From a bacterium (GTDB lineage: Bacteria > Patescibacteriota > Gracilibacteria > UBA1369 > PNNO01): a DNA stretch of 62,398 bases. The notes under the pieces are model-generated. The model worked only from the letters and a program-made list of their open reading frames with translations. It made no database searches and had not been told where the DNA came from. The translations under genes and the position numbers were made by a program. The first letter of the stretch is position 1; every line of letters starts with the position of its first letter. This document shows, one piece after another, positions 13,116 through 59,900 of this stretch. The DNA lies in the NCBI GenBank assembly GCA_021158225.1, contig JAGGUZ010000016.1, positions 1-62,398 of the forward strand, in the 5' to 3' direction.

Positions 13116-14429
13116 ATGACACCGAAAATCGCAGTAATTTTATTTCCAGGAACCAACTGTGAAATTGAAGCCCTAAGAACACTCGAAAGGTCTGATATGA
13201 CCCCGGTTCTCACAAGATGGAATGACTATAAAATAGACTACTCAAAACTTGATGGATTTTTTATACCGGGAGGTTTCTCGTACGAAGACAGAGGACGATC
13301 CGGAATAATCGCATCAAAAAATCCATTATTAAATAAGATTAAGGAAGAAGCCGAAAAGGGCAAACCCGTACTTGGAGTTTGCAATGGAGCACAAATAGTT
13401 CTTGAAGCCAAACTAATTCCAGGACTTGATAGAAATCATGTAGAAATGGCACTTGCTTGGAATAAGCGCATAGATAAAAACGGGAAGATTCTTGGAACAG
13501 GTTTTTATAATGATTGGATCTATATAAAGAATGTTTCTCCAAGCGGAAGAAGCGCATTTAACAAATATGAGTCAAACCATATAATGCGTATTCCGGTTGC
13601 CCATGCCGAAGGGCGTTTTACAACAATGGACGACGATTTACTTAACATACTTGAAAATAATGAACAGATGATATTTAAATATTGCGATAAAGACGGAAAT
13701 ATCATAAACGAATTTCCTGTAAATCCAAACGGAACCGCTATGAATTTAGCCGGTATTTGTAACCCTGAAGGAAATGTAATGTCTCTTATGCCTCATCCTG
13801 AAAGAACAGAGAAAGGTCAGGCAATATTTGATTCAATGAGAGATTATATCGGGAAATCTTTTTCTATCATTAAAAAAGATTCAACAATAATGCACAGAGA
13901 AACAACCGTAAAAGATATAATTGTGACTTATGAGAAACCAACAATTGAGATTCTTATAGATAGCGTTATAACAGATAACGAAGAAAGAACGATTGAACGA
14001 GCCATTCATGAGATGGGATTCAATAATCTTAAATTAAAAAAACATAAATACTTTGGAATTACTTTGGAACCTAATTTGAACCCAGTACAAATTGCAACTG
14101 ACTTAATAAAATCAGGCGAGCTTGTAAATCTGGCAAAAGAAATACCAACTGTTATTACAAATGGGAAAGCCTATGCTTACAAAGAAGGTGAACTCGAAGA
14201 AAATAATACGAATAAAGAAGATAAGAACGCATACTTAACTTTCAACAAAGAAGATATGGATGGAGAAAGCATATTACAGACAATCAATCTACACTTTTCC
14301 ATACCTGGTATAAAAAAGATAACATCCGGGAAAAAATGGATTTTAAATATCGAACAAAATAAAGCTGTGGAAATAGTTAAAACACAGATTTTTCACAATC
14401 CGCATGCAATGAACATTTATAAAGTTTAA
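13116..14429 (+). CDS. purQ: FGAM synthase glutaminase subunit PurQ with C-terminal tandem PurS-like extension
   Basis: FPGTNC, PGGFSYED, GVCNGAQ (catalytic Cys), PVAHAEG, NPNG, MPHPER; about 190 extra C-terminal aa. Confidence 0.9.
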   Translation: MTPKIAVILFPGTNCEIEALRTLERSDMTPVLTRWNDYKIDYSKLDGFFIPGGFSYEDRGRSGIIASKNPLLNKIKEEAEKGKPVLGVCNGAQIVLEAKLIPGLDRNHVEMALAWNKRIDKNGKILGTGFYNDWIYIKNVSPSGRSAFNKYESNHIMRIPVAHAEGRFTTMDDDLLNILENNEQMIFKYCDKDGNIINEFPVNPNGTAMNLAGICNPEGNVMSLMPHPERTEKGQAIFDSMRDYIGKSFSIIKKDSTIMHRETTVKDIIVTYEKPTIEILIDSVITDNEERTIERAIHEMGFNNLKLKKHKYFGITLEPNLNPVQIATDLIKSGELVNLAKEIPTVITNGKAYAYKEGELEENNTNKEDKNAYLTFNKEDMDGESILQTINLHFSIPGIKKITSGKKWILNIEQNKAVEIVKTQIFHNPHAMNIYKV

Positions 14430-14440
14430 AATTAAACACT

Positions 14441-16222
14441 ATGTGTGGAATATTTGCCTACAAAGGGCAAAAAACAAACGCAGCCCAGCTTGTTGTTAAT
14501 GGACTAAAAAAACTTGAATATAGAGGCTATGATTCTTGGGGAATAGCTTTTAAAACCGGTCATAAAGTAAGTATATACAAAGAAATCGGGAAAATAGGAG
14601 AATTTGATATATCAACATTAAAAGAAAAAGTTGACGGACCAATAAATGGCCACATGGCAATGGGACATTCAAGATGGGCTACGCATGGAGGCGTAACACA
14701 AGAAAACGCACACCCGCATTACTCGCAAGACAAAACAATAGCCGTTGTGCATAACGGAATTATTGAAAATTTTGAAGAATTAAAAACTGAACTAAAAGAA
14801 AAAGGATATAAATTTAGATCCGAAACAGATACGGAAGTAATTTCACATTTAATACAAAAATATAAATCTCTTGGCCCTGTGGATGCTGTTAAAAAAGCAT
14901 TATCACGCCTTCGTGGCAGATATGCCGTACTGGTTTTATGCGCCGAAGATGACAGACTAATAGCAGCACGGAGAGGATCTCCTTTAATTGTCGGGAAAGG
15001 AGAAAATGAATTTTTTATTGCTTCCGATATACCGGCATTCTTAGAATACACAAGAAAAGTTATGTACTTGGATGATAATCAAATGGTTGTTATAAATAAT
15101 GACGCAGAATTTTTCGATCTTGAAACAAATAAAAAAATTGATAAAAGAATCGTTAAAATTGACTGGAGCCCGGAAAGTGCTGAAAAAGGAGAATTCCCAC
15201 ATTTTATGATAAAGGAAATTACCGAGCAGAAAGAGACAATTGCAAGGGCGATTAATCAAGACGAGAAACAATTCATGAAAATTGCGAATGAAATTAAGAA
15301 TGCGTATGGAACATATTTGGTAGGATGTGGAACTGCGGGAAAAGTATGTTTAACCGGCTCGTATCTTTTTGCTAAAATCGCGAAAAGACATGTAAATGTA
15401 ACATTTGGATCGGAATTCCCGAGTTTACAAGATTTCATTACAGATAGAAGTTTAGTGATCGCAGTATCTCAAAGCGGAGAAACAGCTGATACTCTTGAAG
15501 CGATCGAAGTGGCAAAAGGGAAAAAAGCAAAAGTTCTTTCAATTATCAATGTTGAAGGTTCGTCGATGGATAGAATTTCCGATTATGCAATTAATATTAA
15601 AGCCGGACCGGAAAAAGCCGTAGCATCAACAAAAGCTACTACTGCTCAGCTTGCTATTTTGACCCTACTGGCTTATGCCCTTGATAACAGACTTGAGGAA
15701 GGAAAAATTTTGCTTGTAAATACTGCAAGTCAAATTAATGACATGCTAAATCCAAGATATGAAGACCATATTCTTAATCTCGCGAAAAAGATAAAAGATG
15801 TTGAAAGTATGTATGTAATAGGAAAAGGCGTTAATTATCCGATAGCACTTGAGGCTGCAATAAAATTGCAAGAAGTTTCTTATATACATGCGGAAGGATT
15901 TGCAGGAGGAGAATTAAAACATGGACCGATTGCACTAATAAATGACGGCGTTCCATGTGTTGTAATAGTTGCAAACGATGAAACGAAACAAGAAACAATC
16001 AGTAACGCGATAGAAGTGAAATCACGTGGTGGATACATTATTGGAATCGCTCCGGAAAACAATAATATATTTGATTACTGGATAAAAGTTCCGGAAGTGG
16101 GAGAAGCATCCCCAATCGTAAATATTATTCCGATTCAAATCTTAGCTTATCAATTGGCAATTCTAAGAAAAAACAATCCTGACATGCCACGCAATCTTGC
16201 CAAAAGCGTAACAGTCAAATAA
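14441..16222 (+). CDS. glmS: Glutamine--fructose-6-phosphate aminotransferase
   Basis: MCGI, LEYRGYDS, GHSRWATHG, SQSGETADT, ELKHGP, PRNLAKSVTV. Confidence 0.97.
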   Translation: MCGIFAYKGQKTNAAQLVVNGLKKLEYRGYDSWGIAFKTGHKVSIYKEIGKIGEFDISTLKEKVDGPINGHMAMGHSRWATHGGVTQENAHPHYSQDKTIAVVHNGIIENFEELKTELKEKGYKFRSETDTEVISHLIQKYKSLGPVDAVKKALSRLRGRYAVLVLCAEDDRLIAARRGSPLIVGKGENEFFIASDIPAFLEYTRKVMYLDDNQMVVINNDAEFFDLETNKKIDKRIVKIDWSPESAEKGEFPHFMIKEITEQKETIARAINQDEKQFMKIANEIKNAYGTYLVGCGTAGKVCLTGSYLFAKIAKRHVNVTFGSEFPSLQDFITDRSLVIAVSQSGETADTLEAIEVAKGKKAKVLSIINVEGSSMDRISDYAINIKAGPEKAVASTKATTAQLAILTLLAYALDNRLEEGKILLVNTASQINDMLNPRYEDHILNLAKKIKDVESMYVIGKGVNYPIALEAAIKLQEVSYIHAEGFAGGELKHGPIALINDGVPCVVIVANDETKQETISNAIEVKSRGGYIIGIAPENNNIFDYWIKVPEVGEASPIVNIIPIQILAYQLAILRKNNPDMPRNLAKSVTVK

Positions 16223-16235
16223 TTCATAGTGCTAT

Positions 16236-17159
16236 ATGTTAAAGAAATATAAGAATAGCGATCCCGACGAACATTTTGCCAAAAGAACAAACGACGACCT
16301 TATGGATTTACTTTCTCAGTTATGGATAAAATCACCAGAAGATATATCTTATGTTGACCGAATAACTTTTGCTGGACTCAAAACTATTTCGGGGATGGTC
16401 TGCGATTTAATTACAAAAGTATTAAACGAAACACATATAAAAGGTCATCACTTTTTTTTAGATAATCTTGATAAAGTGAGACGTGGCGGGAAAGGCATGC
16501 TTACTACATCAAATCATAGCACTTACCCGGATGATCCTTTTATTCCTGGAGCATTATTAAATGGCCAATACCTAAATTCGTGGAAAATTCTTTTTGGTGA
16601 TAACTCAGAATATGAAAATTGGAAATGGACTCCAGCTGAAAAAAGAAATTTTTTCTATCATAAAAACAAAAAATTAAGAAGAATATTCCGCTGGTTTTTT
16701 GGAAGAACAAAGACAGTTCCAATTTTAAGAGGTCAAGGTTTAAATCAAATAGCGCAAACACAACTTGAATCTTTTCTAAGACATGGTGATTGGGTTCATG
16801 TTTTTGGAGAAGGTACAAGAACACGTAAACATGGGAAGTTAAGAAAATTTAAGCCAGGCATTGGAAAGTTAATTCATCAAGCCCCTCAAACGTTAATAGT
16901 CCCATTTGGACATGATGGACTGCAGAATGTAACCCCACTCGGCAGTGCCGCAGAAGTTATCGATGACAGAACTGGAGAAGTGGATAAACGAATACTGAGA
17001 ACAGGTCAAAGAATTCAAATAGTAATAGGAGAGCCGTTTACCCTAACAAGTATTGTTGAAAAAATGGATCCATCCGTAGAAAACTACCTTGAAATTGCGG
17101 AAATGATTAGAACACGTGTTGCAGAATGTCATCAAGAAGCAATAGAACTTAATAAATAA
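16236..17159 (+). CDS. Lysophospholipid acyltransferase/transacylase, tafazzin-like
   Basis: HX4D motif SNHSTYPDDP, WTPA, VPILRGQG, HGDWVHVFGEG, FKPGIGKLI, GQRIQIVIGEPF. Confidence 0.8.
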   Translation: MLKKYKNSDPDEHFAKRTNDDLMDLLSQLWIKSPEDISYVDRITFAGLKTISGMVCDLITKVLNETHIKGHHFFLDNLDKVRRGGKGMLTTSNHSTYPDDPFIPGALLNGQYLNSWKILFGDNSEYENWKWTPAEKRNFFYHKNKKLRRIFRWFFGRTKTVPILRGQGLNQIAQTQLESFLRHGDWVHVFGEGTRTRKHGKLRKFKPGIGKLIHQAPQTLIVPFGHDGLQNVTPLGSAAEVIDDRTGEVDKRILRTGQRIQIVIGEPFTLTSIVEKMDPSVENYLEIAEMIRTRVAECHQEAIELNK

Positions 17160-17208: not shown

Positions 17209-17415
17209 ATGAATATGAATCCAAAAACAAATATTTATGATATGATTCAACAACAGTTTGAAACCAAGTGCGACAATATTCAAAGCGAAACAGATAAGCT
17301 TTTAAATATGGTCCCGAAATACGATATAAAAAGGAGAAAAAAAATCCTTGATCTACATAAACTGAAATTAAAAGAAGCACTATTCAAACTTAATGAAAAT
17401 TTAAAATCACTTTAA
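17209..17415 (+). CDS. Small helical hypothetical protein
   Basis: Fills the gap after the promoter; stop abuts the pyk ATG (TAAATG); ATG 17209 or 17215. Confidence 0.6.
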   Translation: MNMNPKTNIYDMIQQQFETKCDNIQSETDKLLNMVPKYDIKRRKKILDLHKLKLKEALFKLNENLKSL

Positions 17416-18807
17416 ATGCGAGTACAAAATACAAAATTCGTTTGCACACTCGGACCGGCATCAAACAATATGAAAATTCTTGAAAAGATGGTCTACGCCG
17501 GAATGGATGTTGCAAGACTGAATTTTTCTCATGGAGATTATAAGAGTCATGCAAAATTAATTAGATACATCAGAGCAATTTCGAAAAAAACAGGTGTTCC
17601 AATTGCTATTATGCAAGATTTACAGGGTCCGAAAATAAGAATCGGAAAAGTTAAAGATCCCGGAATCAAAGTTAACAAAGGTCAAGAAATTATTCTAACC
17701 TGCGGGAAACTAAGAAAAGATTTAATACCGGTACAATACAAACAACTATATAAAGATGTTAAGAGAAATTCCCTCTTATTAATCGATGACGGATTGATTG
17801 AATTAAAAGTGGAAAAAGTAAAAGGCAAAGATATTTATTGTATATGCAAAAACAACGGAATAATCAAAAAAAACAAAGGTATTAATGTCCCAAACGAGAA
17901 TATTACAACAAGTTCAATAACAACAAAAGATAAAAAAGATTTAGTGTTTGGACTTAAACATGGCATTGATTATGTAGCGCTTTCCTTTGTTAAAGAGGCA
18001 AAAGACATATTGGAAATAAAAAAACTAATCGGCAATAAAAATGTAAAAGTTATAGCAAAAATAGAGCGTTCCAAAGCTGTTGAAAATCTTGATGAAATCA
18101 TTAAAGTCGCGGACTCGCTTATGGTCGCCCGCGGAGACCTTGCAATGGAAATCGGACCGGAAAAAGTTCCGATAGTTCAAAAAGAAATGATTAAAAAATG
18201 CAATCTTGCCGGTAAACCGATAATAACGGCTACTCAAATGTTGCAATCAATGGTGTTAAACCCTCAGCCAACGCGTGCGGAAATAAGTGATGTCGCCAAT
18301 GCAATCTTCGACAACACAGACGCAATTATGCTTTCAAATGAAACTGCGGTCGGGAAATATCCTGTTCGAGCCGTTAAAATCTTTGCAAAAGTCGCCCAAA
18401 CCATAGAGAGAGAACTTAAAAAATATAATAAGACCTCGAATATCGAGAAATCAAGCGATGAGATTGACTATTACGATGCGCTTGGACTTAGCACATGCCA
18501 GCTTGCCAAAGCAATAAAAGCAAGACATATCGTAGTGGTCAGTTCTTCCGGAAAATCCGCAAGATATATATCGAAACAAAGATCATACATTCCAACAATA
18601 GTAATAACTGTAAACGAAAAAATAAAAAACCAATTGTCTTTGTTATGGGGACTAAATGACATTATTATCGAAAAAATAAGTACGAAGAACTACTTGAAAG
18701 ACATAGAAAAAATTCTTAAGAAACACCCAGCTCTTAAAAAAGGTCAGAAAATTGTTATTCTTTATGCACACAGTAAAGAAAAACGTATTGTATCGACAAC
18801 CATATAA
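17416..18807 (+). CDS. pyk: Pyruvate kinase
   Basis: TKFVCTLGPAS, ARLNFSHG, DLQGPKIR, IAKIE, MVARGDL, ATQMLQSM, PTRAE. Confidence 0.96.
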   Translation: MRVQNTKFVCTLGPASNNMKILEKMVYAGMDVARLNFSHGDYKSHAKLIRYIRAISKKTGVPIAIMQDLQGPKIRIGKVKDPGIKVNKGQEIILTCGKLRKDLIPVQYKQLYKDVKRNSLLLIDDGLIELKVEKVKGKDIYCICKNNGIIKKNKGINVPNENITTSSITTKDKKDLVFGLKHGIDYVALSFVKEAKDILEIKKLIGNKNVKVIAKIERSKAVENLDEIIKVADSLMVARGDLAMEIGPEKVPIVQKEMIKKCNLAGKPIITATQMLQSMVLNPQPTRAEISDVANAIFDNTDAIMLSNETAVGKYPVRAVKIFAKVAQTIERELKKYNKTSNIEKSSDEIDYYDALGLSTCQLAKAIKARHIVVVSSSGKSARYISKQRSYIPTIVITVNEKIKNQLSLLWGLNDIIIEKISTKNYLKDIEKILKKHPALKKGQKIVILYAHSKEKRIVSTTI

Positions 18808-56995: not shown

Positions 56996-59900
56996 ATGTT
57001 TCTCAAAAAATCAATGCATTTCTTAAATAATGTCTTTAAAAAAGAATTATTTATATGCGAATCCAAACCGGTTTATCTGTCTTTCCGTAACAATGAAACA
57101 AGAACCGAAAGAGTTGTTCCAAATGAAACAGTAAAAGATCGAATGTCATTAAATCGCAAAGCGATAAAAAAACTTAGAGAAGAACTAGCAAAGGGAAAAG
57201 AATATAAAAAAGGATTTGAAAAATATATTGGAAAGAAAATATTTAGAAATACATATAAAAAGAAATTAACAGAAAACGACACTATGAAGATGGGGATAGA
57301 TATGGTTGGAATACTGTTAAATTATTTGCCCAAAGAAAAAAATCGCAAAGAAACAAGTAATCGATATAATTTTATAACTCCTCTTCTCGAAGATATTTCC
57401 AAAATTGCAAGAAGTAACTTGAACATAATCAATCGATATATACCTATAAGTATCCAACTTGGACCCGGTAGTGTATTAGAATTTTACAATGATAAAAAGA
57501 AATTTAGTTTAAAATTCGATTTAGAATTGGACTCACCAAGGTTACAACTTATTCAAAGTCAGCTAGATCATCTCCAAAGATCAAAAGAAAGAAAAGCCCA
57601 AGTAAGAGAGCAAATTCACGCAAGAACAAGAACACAGCTTTCCGGAATGAGACAATCCATAAACCCATCGGCAGAATTTACAAATCAACTGATGAGGACA
57701 TCAAAAAGTCCATATCTAAAGAAAAAGGGTGATATATTTGTAATTGATTTTAAAGGAAAATCAAAACATATTGATAGAAAAGCGGAAAAACAAACTAAAA
57801 TACAAGACATACTTGATTTAAGCCGTTTGAATGGCGGGAATATGTATGTGCGTATTCATCTTGATGGCGTAAGTCCCAACGGTGTAAAACATAAATATTG
57901 GGCATATTATCATCCTACACAAAGAACATTTATAGTGGAGAGAACAACAAAAAGAGCAAGGGTATTTCATGGAACAAAAATAGATAAAATCGAATATAGA
58001 GTAGCTACACCAAAAAAGGCTACTATGCCAATAGTAGCTCCGAGTAGGAAACAAAAAAAGGCCCCTCGTATTAGTGAAAGTAGAAGACGCGCCGAAAGAC
58101 TTGGAAGAATTGAACGAAAAAACTGGGATAATTTTCATAGAAACCATGCCTATATTTTCAAAAACAAGCGTTTTTATGTTCCAAGATTCATTCAAGATGA
58201 CGATGATTTTAAGAACAACTGGGGAAGAATTGATGCGACCTTGGAAGGATCGCTTGCAAGACCTCCTTTTAACTTAAGAAGTACAAAAGCAAGAAGAAAA
58301 TATATACAAGATGTTATACAGGGAAATTCAATGTTTGATCTTAATAGTAGACTTTATGCGCAAGACTTCTTTGAAACGAAAGTTAATGGGAAAAACCTTT
58401 ATAAAGGTGGATATAAAAAGTTCTTAAAAGATTTCCATTCGGTCGATAAAAAAATGGCAAGACTCGGCATGGATTACCTACATCCGCGAAATGCTGAAGA
58501 AACAGACCTTGCTAAAAAATGGTCTAAATTACAATCAATAGCTTTCGGACTGGCAAGCGTTTTTAACGCACTGGGAAGATTAAGTATTCATCCAAAGCAA
58601 GCTGAAACAAATACAGACATATACAGAATTAAATTCCTTGGAATTAAACAAATCAGCGAAAGAGAAATGAAAAAACTTAGACCTCTTAAATACCACAGTT
58701 TGCAATCACTCCTTCATGGCAAGGAAAATGCTCCATCGGGAATTGATATTGGAGTAAGTAACAAAATACTAACAAATATCAAAGATATTGTCATAGACAA
58801 TGAAGCTCCAAATTTAAATATAAGAAAGCTATTAAAAGCGAAAGGTGGTTTAAAATTAATGTTTATGGCTTTCGGATTAAATAGCTTAATCGAAAGAGGA
58901 TGTGTTAAAAAGCTGGACGGCAAACACTATGTAATTGTTAGAATCCCAACAAATGGATGGAGTAACGCACTTTTAACAATAGAAAACAATAAAGCGAAAT
59001 TGTATGACCCATCAAGAGAGAACCTAAAAAAATGGGAAGAGGTTCGAGAATCAATAAATAATGGTAGACGTGCAAGAAATTTCATTCTTAAAATATTTAG
59101 ACCAAACGGATCTGAGGTAAAACAAAATATTAATTGGTGGAAAAAATTATGGCATTGGGATTTTAAAAATAAAAAGAAAATAACAATGGCCTATCTTGGA
59201 AAAATAACTTTAAATCCAAGCGACTTAGAGAAACATGTAGCCACCGATCGCGGATATTGGGATATGATGGAAAAAACTTCAAAACGAGTTGAAGGAACTT
59301 CTTTATATGAACCGCAAAAAGAGAAGGTTCTAAGATTATCCAACCAATATTTGGAATACGGATTACTGGCAACTTTTATGAACACAAGTCCGAAAAATCT
59401 AAAAGATGTTACTAACCAAATACTGCGAGATTTCGACATTGAAAACAAAGTACATTTAAAAACCCCTCTTAATAAGAAAGAAAATAGAATAGGAAACATT
59501 AAAGAAATACATAGAGCAATCTCGTTAAAAGGTTTAAATCCGGCATATCTTACAAATGCTCATATTAAAATGATTCGAATGGGATATGTACTTGGACGAC
59601 AAATTGAAACTGCAAGCAACTGGAGCGAAGTAATGAAAGATAATTTATCGACAAAACCTTTATATAGAAAAATTCAGTTAAAAGCTTTAAGAGACGGCTG
59701 TCCTATATATAAATTAAAGGAGGTTGAACAAAGAGTGCATCTTGCCATATTCGGACTTTCGCAAAGCATGCATGCTCCCGGTGTACACAACCTTAATGTA
59801 CGCGGAGGGGGCGGTGCCGTTGCAATTGATCTTGGAGAATGGGCCGGTCAAAAATGGCATATGAGCGTTGGAGCCGCCGGAGTAGATGGCAAATTCATGC

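Follow-up and report, generated by a model that had tools for sequence, protein, structure and literature searches.

By comparing the product of an open reading frame (ORF) on contig JAGGUZ010000016.1 (assembly GCA_021158225.1; the whole stretch of 62,398 nucleotides is called the window hereafter) with profiles, structures and trees of lysophospholipid acyltransferases (LPLATs), we found that this bacterial protein is closer to tafazzin, both by profile and by fold, than to the other LPLATs compared. It is an intact and conserved tafazzin-like PF01553 acyltransferase, not a PlsC-type one. Tafazzin (TAZ/Taz1) is a coenzyme A (CoA)-independent phospholipid:lysophospholipid transacylase that remodels cardiolipin, and it is treated as a eukaryote-only, mitochondrial enzyme. 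From homology and from the acyl-donor pathways missing in the host genome, we estimate at roughly 55% the probability that the window ORF likewise works as a CoA-independent phospholipid:lysophospholipid transacylase.

16236..17159, forward strand: tafazzin-like LPLAT-fold acyltransferase ORF, 307 amino acids (aa), ATG start, PF01553 match at 5.6e-14

Profile searches place the window ORF with tafazzin

Pfam assigns only the generic Acyltransferase domain PF01553 to this ORF. We therefore relied on comparisons of a finer grain, for which the non-tafazzin side consisted of PlsC-type proteins from candidate phyla radiation (CPR) bacteria and of PDB chains, with the eukaryotic AGPAT, LCLAT and LPGAT subfamilies outside the sample. 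Searched as a single sequence against the PDB, the window protein gave one significant match, 7zkq_T ("Tafazzin family protein"), at an E-value of 1.9e-6. Profiles were also built from the window protein and its closest relatives (the window's clade, 19 bacterial sequences in all), from two further bacterial groups (A and B), from named eukaryotic tafazzins and from CPR PlsC-type proteins. Their PDB matches were as follows.

Window's clade (A1, 18 sequences): 7zkq_T 5.1e-11; PlsC 5kym 0.59
Bacterial groups A/B (A2): 7zkq_T 5.1e-21; 5kym 8.1e-9
Named eukaryotic tafazzins (A3): 7zkq_T 7.8e-44; 5kym 8.6e-9
CPR PlsC-type proteins (A4): 7zkq_T no match; 5kym 5.6e-32

The two control profiles (A4 and A3) behaved as expected. 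When profiles were aligned to each other with HHalign, the window's clade matched eukaryotic tafazzins at 9.2e-50 (score 349 over 239 columns, about 25% profile identity) and bacterial groups A/B at 1.1e-48 (32% identity), whereas the match to PlsC-type proteins (2.1e-18, score 129.5) was 31 orders of magnitude weaker than that to tafazzin. The NCBIfam PlsC model TIGR00530 reached 25.5 bits, far below its cut-off of 102.95, and covered residues 150-221 only. Two tafazzin-like signatures were also counted in 138 full-length distant matches (146 matches in total) from an all-against-library HMMER search: NHx4DD was present in 132 of them and WxHx[FY]xEG in 121, and each was found in none of the 17 PlsC-type outgroup proteins. 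An earlier note, written from the sequence alone, had described the protein as closer to tafazzin than to a generic PlsC, and this description is supported by the PDB profiles and HHalign, as well as by the Foldseek comparison and trees given below.

The tafazzin motif series is complete and in order

The translation of the window ORF holds, in this order, KVLN, TSNHSTYPDDP, WKWTPA, FFGRTKTVPILRGQGLNQ, LRHGDWVHVFGEG, FKPGIGKLI, PFGHDGLQNVTP and GQRIQIVIGEPF. All eight motif strings listed for it in the earlier note are thus present in the stated order, and their spacings are right except for two that were off by one residue (FF...K, not FF..K; G...V, not G..V). The tafazzin series that the same note quoted agrees, in our alignment, with a named seal tafazzin (P0113), which carries ITVSNHQSCMDDP, MRWTPAA, FFSLGKCVPVCRG, LNHGDWVHIFPEG, FKWGIGRLI and GQKITVLIGKPF. 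More broadly, the motif series of the window ORF aligns with that of named tafazzins from seal, fish, fungi, willow and algae, and this likeness is far above chance. The parts of the ORF that bear on it are listed here.

16350..16421, forward strand: long N-terminal helix (residues 39-62) of the AlphaFold2 model, the most hydrophobic stretch of the window ORF
16515..16532, forward strand: predicted catalytic HX4D motif H94-S-T-Y-P-D99 within TSNHSTYPDDP, from the alignment to tafazzin
16620..16655, forward strand: WKWTPAEKRNFF block, aligned counterpart of tafazzin MRWTPAAADICF
16716..16748, forward strand: VPILRGQGLNQ block, aligned counterpart of tafazzin VPVCRGDGVYQ
16785..16820, forward strand: GDWVHVFGEGTR block, aligned counterpart of tafazzin GDWVHIFPEG

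H94 is invariant in 18 of 18 clade sequences; it and D99 correspond in the alignment to seal tafazzin H69 and D74 (human numbering), a pair described as the catalytic dyad in a passage of PMC4412953. Within the WKWTPAEKRNFF block, the clade shows no variation at A134, F139 and F140; the same holds for P162, R165 and Q171 of the VPILRGQGLNQ block and for G184, D185, E192 and R195 of the GDWVHVFGEGTR block. Four basic residues of the window ORF, K130, R148, K159 and R165, align with R94 (human and seal), K106, K117 and R123 of tafazzin, the last of which is itself invariant in the 20-row eukaryotic alignment A3; a section of the modelling paper PMC4412953 places these four tafazzin residues in the membrane patch and the substrate cleft. 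Overall, 28 columns are invariant over the 18 clade sequences, which share 43-90% identity.

From the clade alignment, AlphaFold2 gave a confident model (pLDDT 89.5, pTM 0.88), and in a Foldseek search of the PDB its first-ranked match was again 7zkq_T (E 1.7e-8, TMq 0.61), with GPAT1 at TMq 0.52 and PlsC at TMq 0.47. Helix 39-62 aligns with the hydrophobic, membrane-associating N-terminal segment of tafazzins. The highest Kyte-Doolittle window of 19 residues begins at residue 45 with a mean of just 1.24, so that no clear transmembrane helix is seen.

Set beside eukaryotic tafazzin (7zkq chain T), the window protein thus has the same LPLAT fold, HX4D dyad, basic cleft residues and N-terminal hydrophobic helix, and the same order of motifs: SNHxSxxDDP, WTPA, FFxxxKxVPxxRGxGxxQ, GDWVHxFxEG, FKxGIGxLI, PxxHxGxxxVxP and GQxIxVxIGxPF. 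Its clade differs by a conserved N-terminal extension of about 40 residues with an SQLW motif, by FGEG in place of FPEG and by three insertions. The settings also differ, since the host here is a bacterium without mitochondria in which no cardiolipin synthase was found. With PlsC (TIGR00530; T. maritima, PDB 5kym) it shares PF01553, the HX4D and EGTR motifs and the core fold; PlsC, unlike the enzyme proposed here, needs acyl-ACP (acyl carrier protein) or acyl-CoA, and the searches of the host genome yielded no gene for either, although a donor supplied by a host cell is possible.

The window's clade belongs to a bacterial tafazzin-like radiation outside the eukaryotic family

Three trees were computed, with FastTree on 179 rows, with a quick IQ-TREE search on 80 rows and with a careful IQ-TREE search on 66 rows and 258 columns (LG+C20+F+G4 PMSF). 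The second left out 99 of the 179 rows and the third 14 more (15 names listed), and the outgroup was made of PlsC-type proteins of the same phylum only. In all three trees, the PlsC-type proteins split from all tafazzin-like rows (support 82, 99 and 100/99), the window's clade was monophyletic (100, 100 and 100/100), group B was monophyletic, and the eukaryotic rows formed a clade of their own that excluded the window's clade (97, 95 and 96/87). Because it falls outside the eukaryotic clade, the window ORF is best regarded, from these sequences, as tafazzin-like and not as a tafazzin orthologue. The possible bacterial relative of tafazzin proposed in the earlier note therefore stands as a tafazzin-like protein but not as a tafazzin in the strict sense.

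In the careful tree, group B was sister to all eukaryotic tafazzins (97/77), and the window's clade was sister to group B plus eukaryotes (98/84; this grouping had 86 in the 80-row tree). By approximately unbiased (AU) tests, joining the window's clade directly to the eukaryotes was not rejected (p 0.30), so neither the branching order within the tafazzin-like radiation nor the depth of the window's clade is fixed by them. On the other hand, nesting it with a PlsC subclade, which was named after the tree had been seen, was rejected (dlnL 54.7, p-AU 2.6e-6); a position inside PlsC clades is what the earlier note had set against its own proposal. Group B, the Myxococcota/Chloroflexota group, is at least as near to eukaryotic tafazzins as the window's clade.

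Group B, whose members are bacterial and uncharacterised, shares the motif series with the window's clade. Its proteins are shorter (about 250-280 aa), lack the insertions of the window's clade, keep FPEG and come from large-genome, free-living phyla; they are nearer to eukaryotic tafazzin than the window's clade in the best tree, with the alternative not rejected. Tafazzin-like proteins are also found in Calditrichota and other bacterial groups. The bacterial radiation as counted here takes in the window's clade, groups A and B and the types L022-L026. By scanning species genomes with the alignment of groups A and B, we obtained 69 loci. Among them, group-B-like genes (L043-L083) belong to Myxococcota, Bradymonadia, "Deltaproteobacteria", Dehalococcoidia/Chloroflexota, Leptospiraceae and Oligoflexia metagenome-assembled genomes, with two complete chromosomes among these, and group-A-like genes belong to Calditrichota, Delongbacteria, Cloacimonadota and LCP-89. 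Group A includes a protein from a Calditrichota metagenome-assembled genome that is named PlsC at NCBI and monolysocardiolipin acyltransferase at IMG, and group B members bear the same IMG name.

Sequence searches gave a consistent picture. A word-indexed search returned 15 clusters at 46-90% identity to the window protein, all of them metagenomic and one named as a generic PlsC. In an exhaustive HMMER search of 1.84 billion representatives, 754 matches had an E-value of at most 1e-3; four fell below 1e-30, all of them the clade's own clusters, and the next stood at 1.5e-24. We looked up the first ten matches past the clade: five were named eukaryotes (an oomycete, a chlorarachniophyte, a green alga, a glaucophyte and a haptophyte), one was labelled monolysocardiolipin acyltransferase and four had no name. 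Ten further clusters taken across the main clade were eukaryotic in nine cases, including seal and fish tafazzin and a willow "TAZ PROTEIN TAFAZZIN", and unnamed in one. Of these 20 clusters, 14 could thus be confirmed as eukaryotic, and two of the remaining six (P0024 and P0028) are bacterial members of group B. The best identities of the window protein to eukaryotic matches were 32-44%, and in a protein atlas its nearest clusters were two from Myxococcota and one from Basidiomycota. When 185,579 species genomes were scanned with the clade profile, 41 pattern stretches matched and no relative was among them, so the other members of the clade come from organisms outside that collection. From metagenomes, a scan brought back just four short contigs belonging to close relatives.

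Some members of the clade deserve mention in their own right. L020 (156-1163) is full-length and 46% identical to the window protein and lies on a contig with a G+C content (GC) of 0.50, the others being at 0.32-0.37; the window's clade may thus extend beyond a single low-GC lineage. P0007 and P0013, both less than 60% identical to the query, each have a longest contig of 14,676 bases and may be two paralogues on one contig. L021 (3-437) breaks off past the position matching residue 141, and the genes behind it, for a membrane protein and an Lrp/AsnC-like regulator, are unrelated; either this copy is a pseudogene or its contig is chimeric.

The host genome lacks recognizable acyl-donor pathways

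The genome that contains the window comprises 990,274 bases in 33 contigs and is 99.37% complete. By six-frame family searches, the window ORF was the sole PF01553 gene found in it, and we detected no PlsY or PlsX, no ketoacyl synthase, no PP-binding domain or ACP, no AMP-binding acyl-CoA/ACP synthetase and no DegV/FakB. Each of the absent-family models matched in 6-14 of 14 control genomes. The earlier note had pointed out that CPR genomes generally lack fatty-acid synthesis, in agreement with these searches, which found no gene for fatty-acid synthesis or for an acyl donor. It had also suspected a CPR host; a size of 0.99 Mb at 99.4% completeness, next to phylum-mates of about 0.6-2.1 Mb, and the lack of ribosomal protein uL30 in the six-frame search fit that view.

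Since no acyl-donor genes were found, CoA-independent transacylation is the most likely function of the window ORF. In such a mechanism, the basic surface and the N-terminal helix of the enzyme would bind it to the membrane on the cytoplasmic side, and an acyl chain would pass directly from a diacyl phospholipid to a lysophospholipid through the H94/D99 dyad, with no need for acyl-CoA, acyl-ACP or acyl-phosphate. In a cell without fatty-acid synthesis, scavenged lipids and lysolipids could in this way be re-sorted into the diacyl species that the membrane needs. CPR cells are described, in a portion of PMC7242380, as rich in lysolipids, with lipid uptake from neighbours proposed.

Two lipid head-group genes were seen in the same genome, outside the window (C26, 73254-75819), namely a CarS-like cytidylyltransferase and a single CDP-alcohol phosphatidyltransferase. 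The first encodes a 170-aa protein scoring 153.3 against a cut-off of 148 bits with the NCBIfam model for archaeal CDP-2,3-bis-(O-geranylgeranyl)-sn-glycerol synthase. The second lies about 1.4 kb away and most resembles (archaetidyl)inositol-phosphate synthases, below the cut-off. By their sequences, the two appear to be archaeal-type lipid head-group genes in a CPR genome.

The gene is rare and sits at a shared locus between glmS and pyk

By Pfam, the gene lies between glmS upstream and pyk downstream, as the earlier note had placed it.

14441..16222, forward strand: glmS, upstream neighbour, with Pfam GATase and two SIS domains
17209..17415, forward strand: small 68-aa ORF between the acyltransferase and pyk, with no Pfam family
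17416..18807, forward strand: pyk (pyruvate kinase), downstream neighbour, with Pfam PK and PK_C

The glmS stop codon is 13 nt ahead of the ATG of the window ORF, and a terminator scan found no terminator-like site between the two genes. A promoter-like site lies at the 3' end of the window ORF, preceding the 68-aa ORF and pyk. By tblastn, this small ORF has counterparts at 47-62% identity in the relatives L015, L016 and L017, with no match in L014 or L018. The window ORF has a GC of 0.354 and a GC at third codon positions (GC3) of 0.234, in line with the neighbouring genes. Neither the gene nor its position is an assembly artefact: in a second sample one contig runs from glmS through the entire ORF, differing at 3 places, and a further study contributes pieces, about 99% identical, that overlap parts of the ORF and its 3' junction. 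Among the public runs listed, no RNA holder appeared. Altogether, five strain differences fall within the ORF, one synonymous and four conservative replacements (K>R, D>N, I>V and E>K), with no stops or frameshifts.

The distribution of the gene is very narrow. The clade profile matched 5 of 401 sampled genomes of the phylum at an E-value of at most 1e-5, strongly in the host genome only (3.7e-162) and at 1.7e-8 to 4.3e-6 in the other four. In the order it matched one of 201 genomes, the host itself, and in the family none of the 12 other sampled genomes, including three of its genus. A second type of low-GC tafazzin-like protein (L025-type) gave one weak match among the 401 genomes of the phylum, located on a contig of GC 0.60 whose genome is 4% contaminated. 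The earlier note had offered the enzyme as a candidate mechanism of lipid acquisition for CPR bacteria; being so rare in the phylum, it cannot be a general one, and it would rather be a lineage-specific solution.

In three genomes of the same genus and one of the same family, glmS (78-88% identical to that of the window, and 87-88% within the genus) is followed directly by pyk, ruvC and a TPR gene. Homology of these gene-less relatives with the window is lost near 16238 and picks up again near 17148. A recent insertion of the single gene was considered and dropped, as two metagenomic loci show the glmS-gene(-pyk) order around copies just 46-49% identical: L018 holds the 3' end of glmS (84% identity), a clade member (49%) and pyk (64%), and L019 the end of glmS (95%) followed by a clade member (46%). 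At least three lineages, with copies that have diverged deeply, therefore have this arrangement in common, and the clade occupies a conserved glmS-X-pyk locus in a few CPR lineages. Direct or inverted repeats that might mark a mobile insertion were sought in the flanks, with only short matches of chance size as a result. These observations fit better with a gene that is old at this locus and was lost repeatedly, or that moved among relatives by recombination through conserved flanks.

Transacylation weighed against other readings

Several points weigh against a CoA-independent transacylase. No feature of sequence or structure is known by which CoA-independent transacylases can be told apart from acyl-CoA-dependent LPLATs, so it is homology that carries the mechanism. 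The window's clade stands outside the eukaryotic tafazzins on a long stem of 1.0-1.3 substitutions per site, along which function may have changed, and the AU test keeps a position adjoining the PlsC-type outgroup, basal among tafazzin-like proteins (p 0.16). The Pro of FPEG is Gly in most members of the clade, which also carries three insertions of its own (about 10, 6 and 13 residues). The six-frame searches behind the lipid-gene absences could miss a small ACP. No PLD-type cardiolipin synthase was found in the host genome (PLDc_2 none; ClsA 19 bits against a cut-off of 240), and the classical substrate of tafazzin may not be made in this organism, a scavenged pool of cardiolipin being possible. 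The absence of the gene from 12 of 12 sampled family genomes indicates that it is dispensable for the lifestyle. Finally, according to a passage of PMC7242380, other CPR genomes without ACP and PlsX retain an ordinary PlsC and PlsY; because of this, and because 33 of 151 sampled genomes of the phylum have some PF01553 gene, the argument from missing donors is not specific.

The CPR genomes that retain PlsC and PlsY also speak for a conventional donor-dependent lysophospholipid acyltransferase, that is a PlsC-like function on a tafazzin-like scaffold fed by host-derived acyl-CoA, acyl-ACP or acyl-phosphate. Donor-dependent chemistry is the default of the superfamily, the clade lies outside the eukaryotic tafazzins with the basal position still allowed, and R195, the arginine of the EGTR site, is invariant in the clade and also stands in the FPEGTR consensus of the PlsC-type proteins (A4), where animal and fungal tafazzins have EGKVN or EGRVN. 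However, plant and algal tafazzins carry EGTRSR or EGSRSR, so that R195 does not discriminate, and every similarity measure, from the HHalign gap to the low TIGR00530 score, favours tafazzin in a genome where the searches found no gene to make or carry activated acyl groups. We regard this reading, the main rival of transacylation, as possible but doubtful. It is much less probable that the ORF is a dispensable relic, an inherited gene en route to loss with little or no present function. Its absence from the three other species of the genus and from the sampled family, the clean glmS-pyk junctions in the four of four gene-less genomes inspected, the truncated copy L021 and the four of five strain differences that alter a residue would all suit such a relic; yet every full-length clade member has an intact frame, the catalytic columns and 28 others do not vary among sequences of 43-90% identity, the structural model is confident, GC and GC3 agree with the neighbours, the replacements are conservative and free of stops or frameshifts, and three lineages or more carry the gene at this same locus despite the divergence of the copies. 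Least probable of all, and strongly disfavoured, is the recent capture of a genuine eukaryotic tafazzin through horizontal transfer from a eukaryote. Although the best-scoring matches outside the clade are eukaryotic and the gene occurs in an extremely patchy way across the phylum, the clade is monophyletic (100/100) and outside the eukaryotic one in all three trees, identity to eukaryotic matches is at best 32-44%, the composition is native, the locus is common to divergent relatives and several other bacterial tafazzin-like clades branch around it.

Bacterial tafazzin-like proteins and the origin of the eukaryotic enzyme

A 2012 evolutionary survey (PMC3378450) describes bacterial tafazzin look-alikes as having very low similarity and no close relationship to tafazzin, and bacteria as being without such a maturation step. 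In our literature searches we found no paper connecting tafazzin with Patescibacteria or the candidate phyla radiation, no bacterial, prokaryotic or "tafazzin-like" protein under such names, and, for tafazzin with bacterial phyla or myxobacteria, nothing that mentions tafazzin. Some bacterial members have already been flagged by the automatic IMG labels (monolysocardiolipin acyltransferase).

The window ORF adds a bacterial protein with the full tafazzin motif series, and its clade is one of several from bacteria between which the eukaryotic family falls. CoA-independent transacylation thereby gains a bacterial model that can be put to the test, and the protein is relevant to where the mitochondrial cardiolipin-remodelling enzyme arose, as is the sister position of group B to eukaryotic tafazzins. 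It is also a concrete enzyme that can be assayed for how CPR cells without fatty-acid synthesis keep diacyl membranes from scavenged, lysolipid-rich material, a lipid setting outlined in part of PMC7242380. Taking these observations together, we tentatively propose, as a combined claim that is more likely to fail in some part than to hold in full, that donor-free transacylation of the tafazzin type is a bacterial invention, with eukaryotic tafazzin nested in a bacterial radiation in which Myxococcota/Chloroflexota would be nearest, the window's clade next, and Calditrichota/Delongbacteria and others deeper, and that the enzyme acts here as the sole acyltransferase, rebuilding diacyl lipids purely by shuffling chains among host-derived lipids and lysolipids. 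If this is true, a cell without fatty-acid synthesis, ACP or acyl-CoA would rebuild its diacyl membrane lipids by chain shuffling alone.

Other features of the window

Upstream of glmS, positions 13116-14429 (forward strand) encode a 437-aa protein with a PurQ-type amidotransferase domain (GATase_5, 4.6e-43) and a weak PurS-like C-terminal stretch, which may be a PurQ-PurS fusion. At the far end, an open frame of at least 1801 aa starts at 56996 on the forward strand, runs to 62398 and continues past the end of the window.

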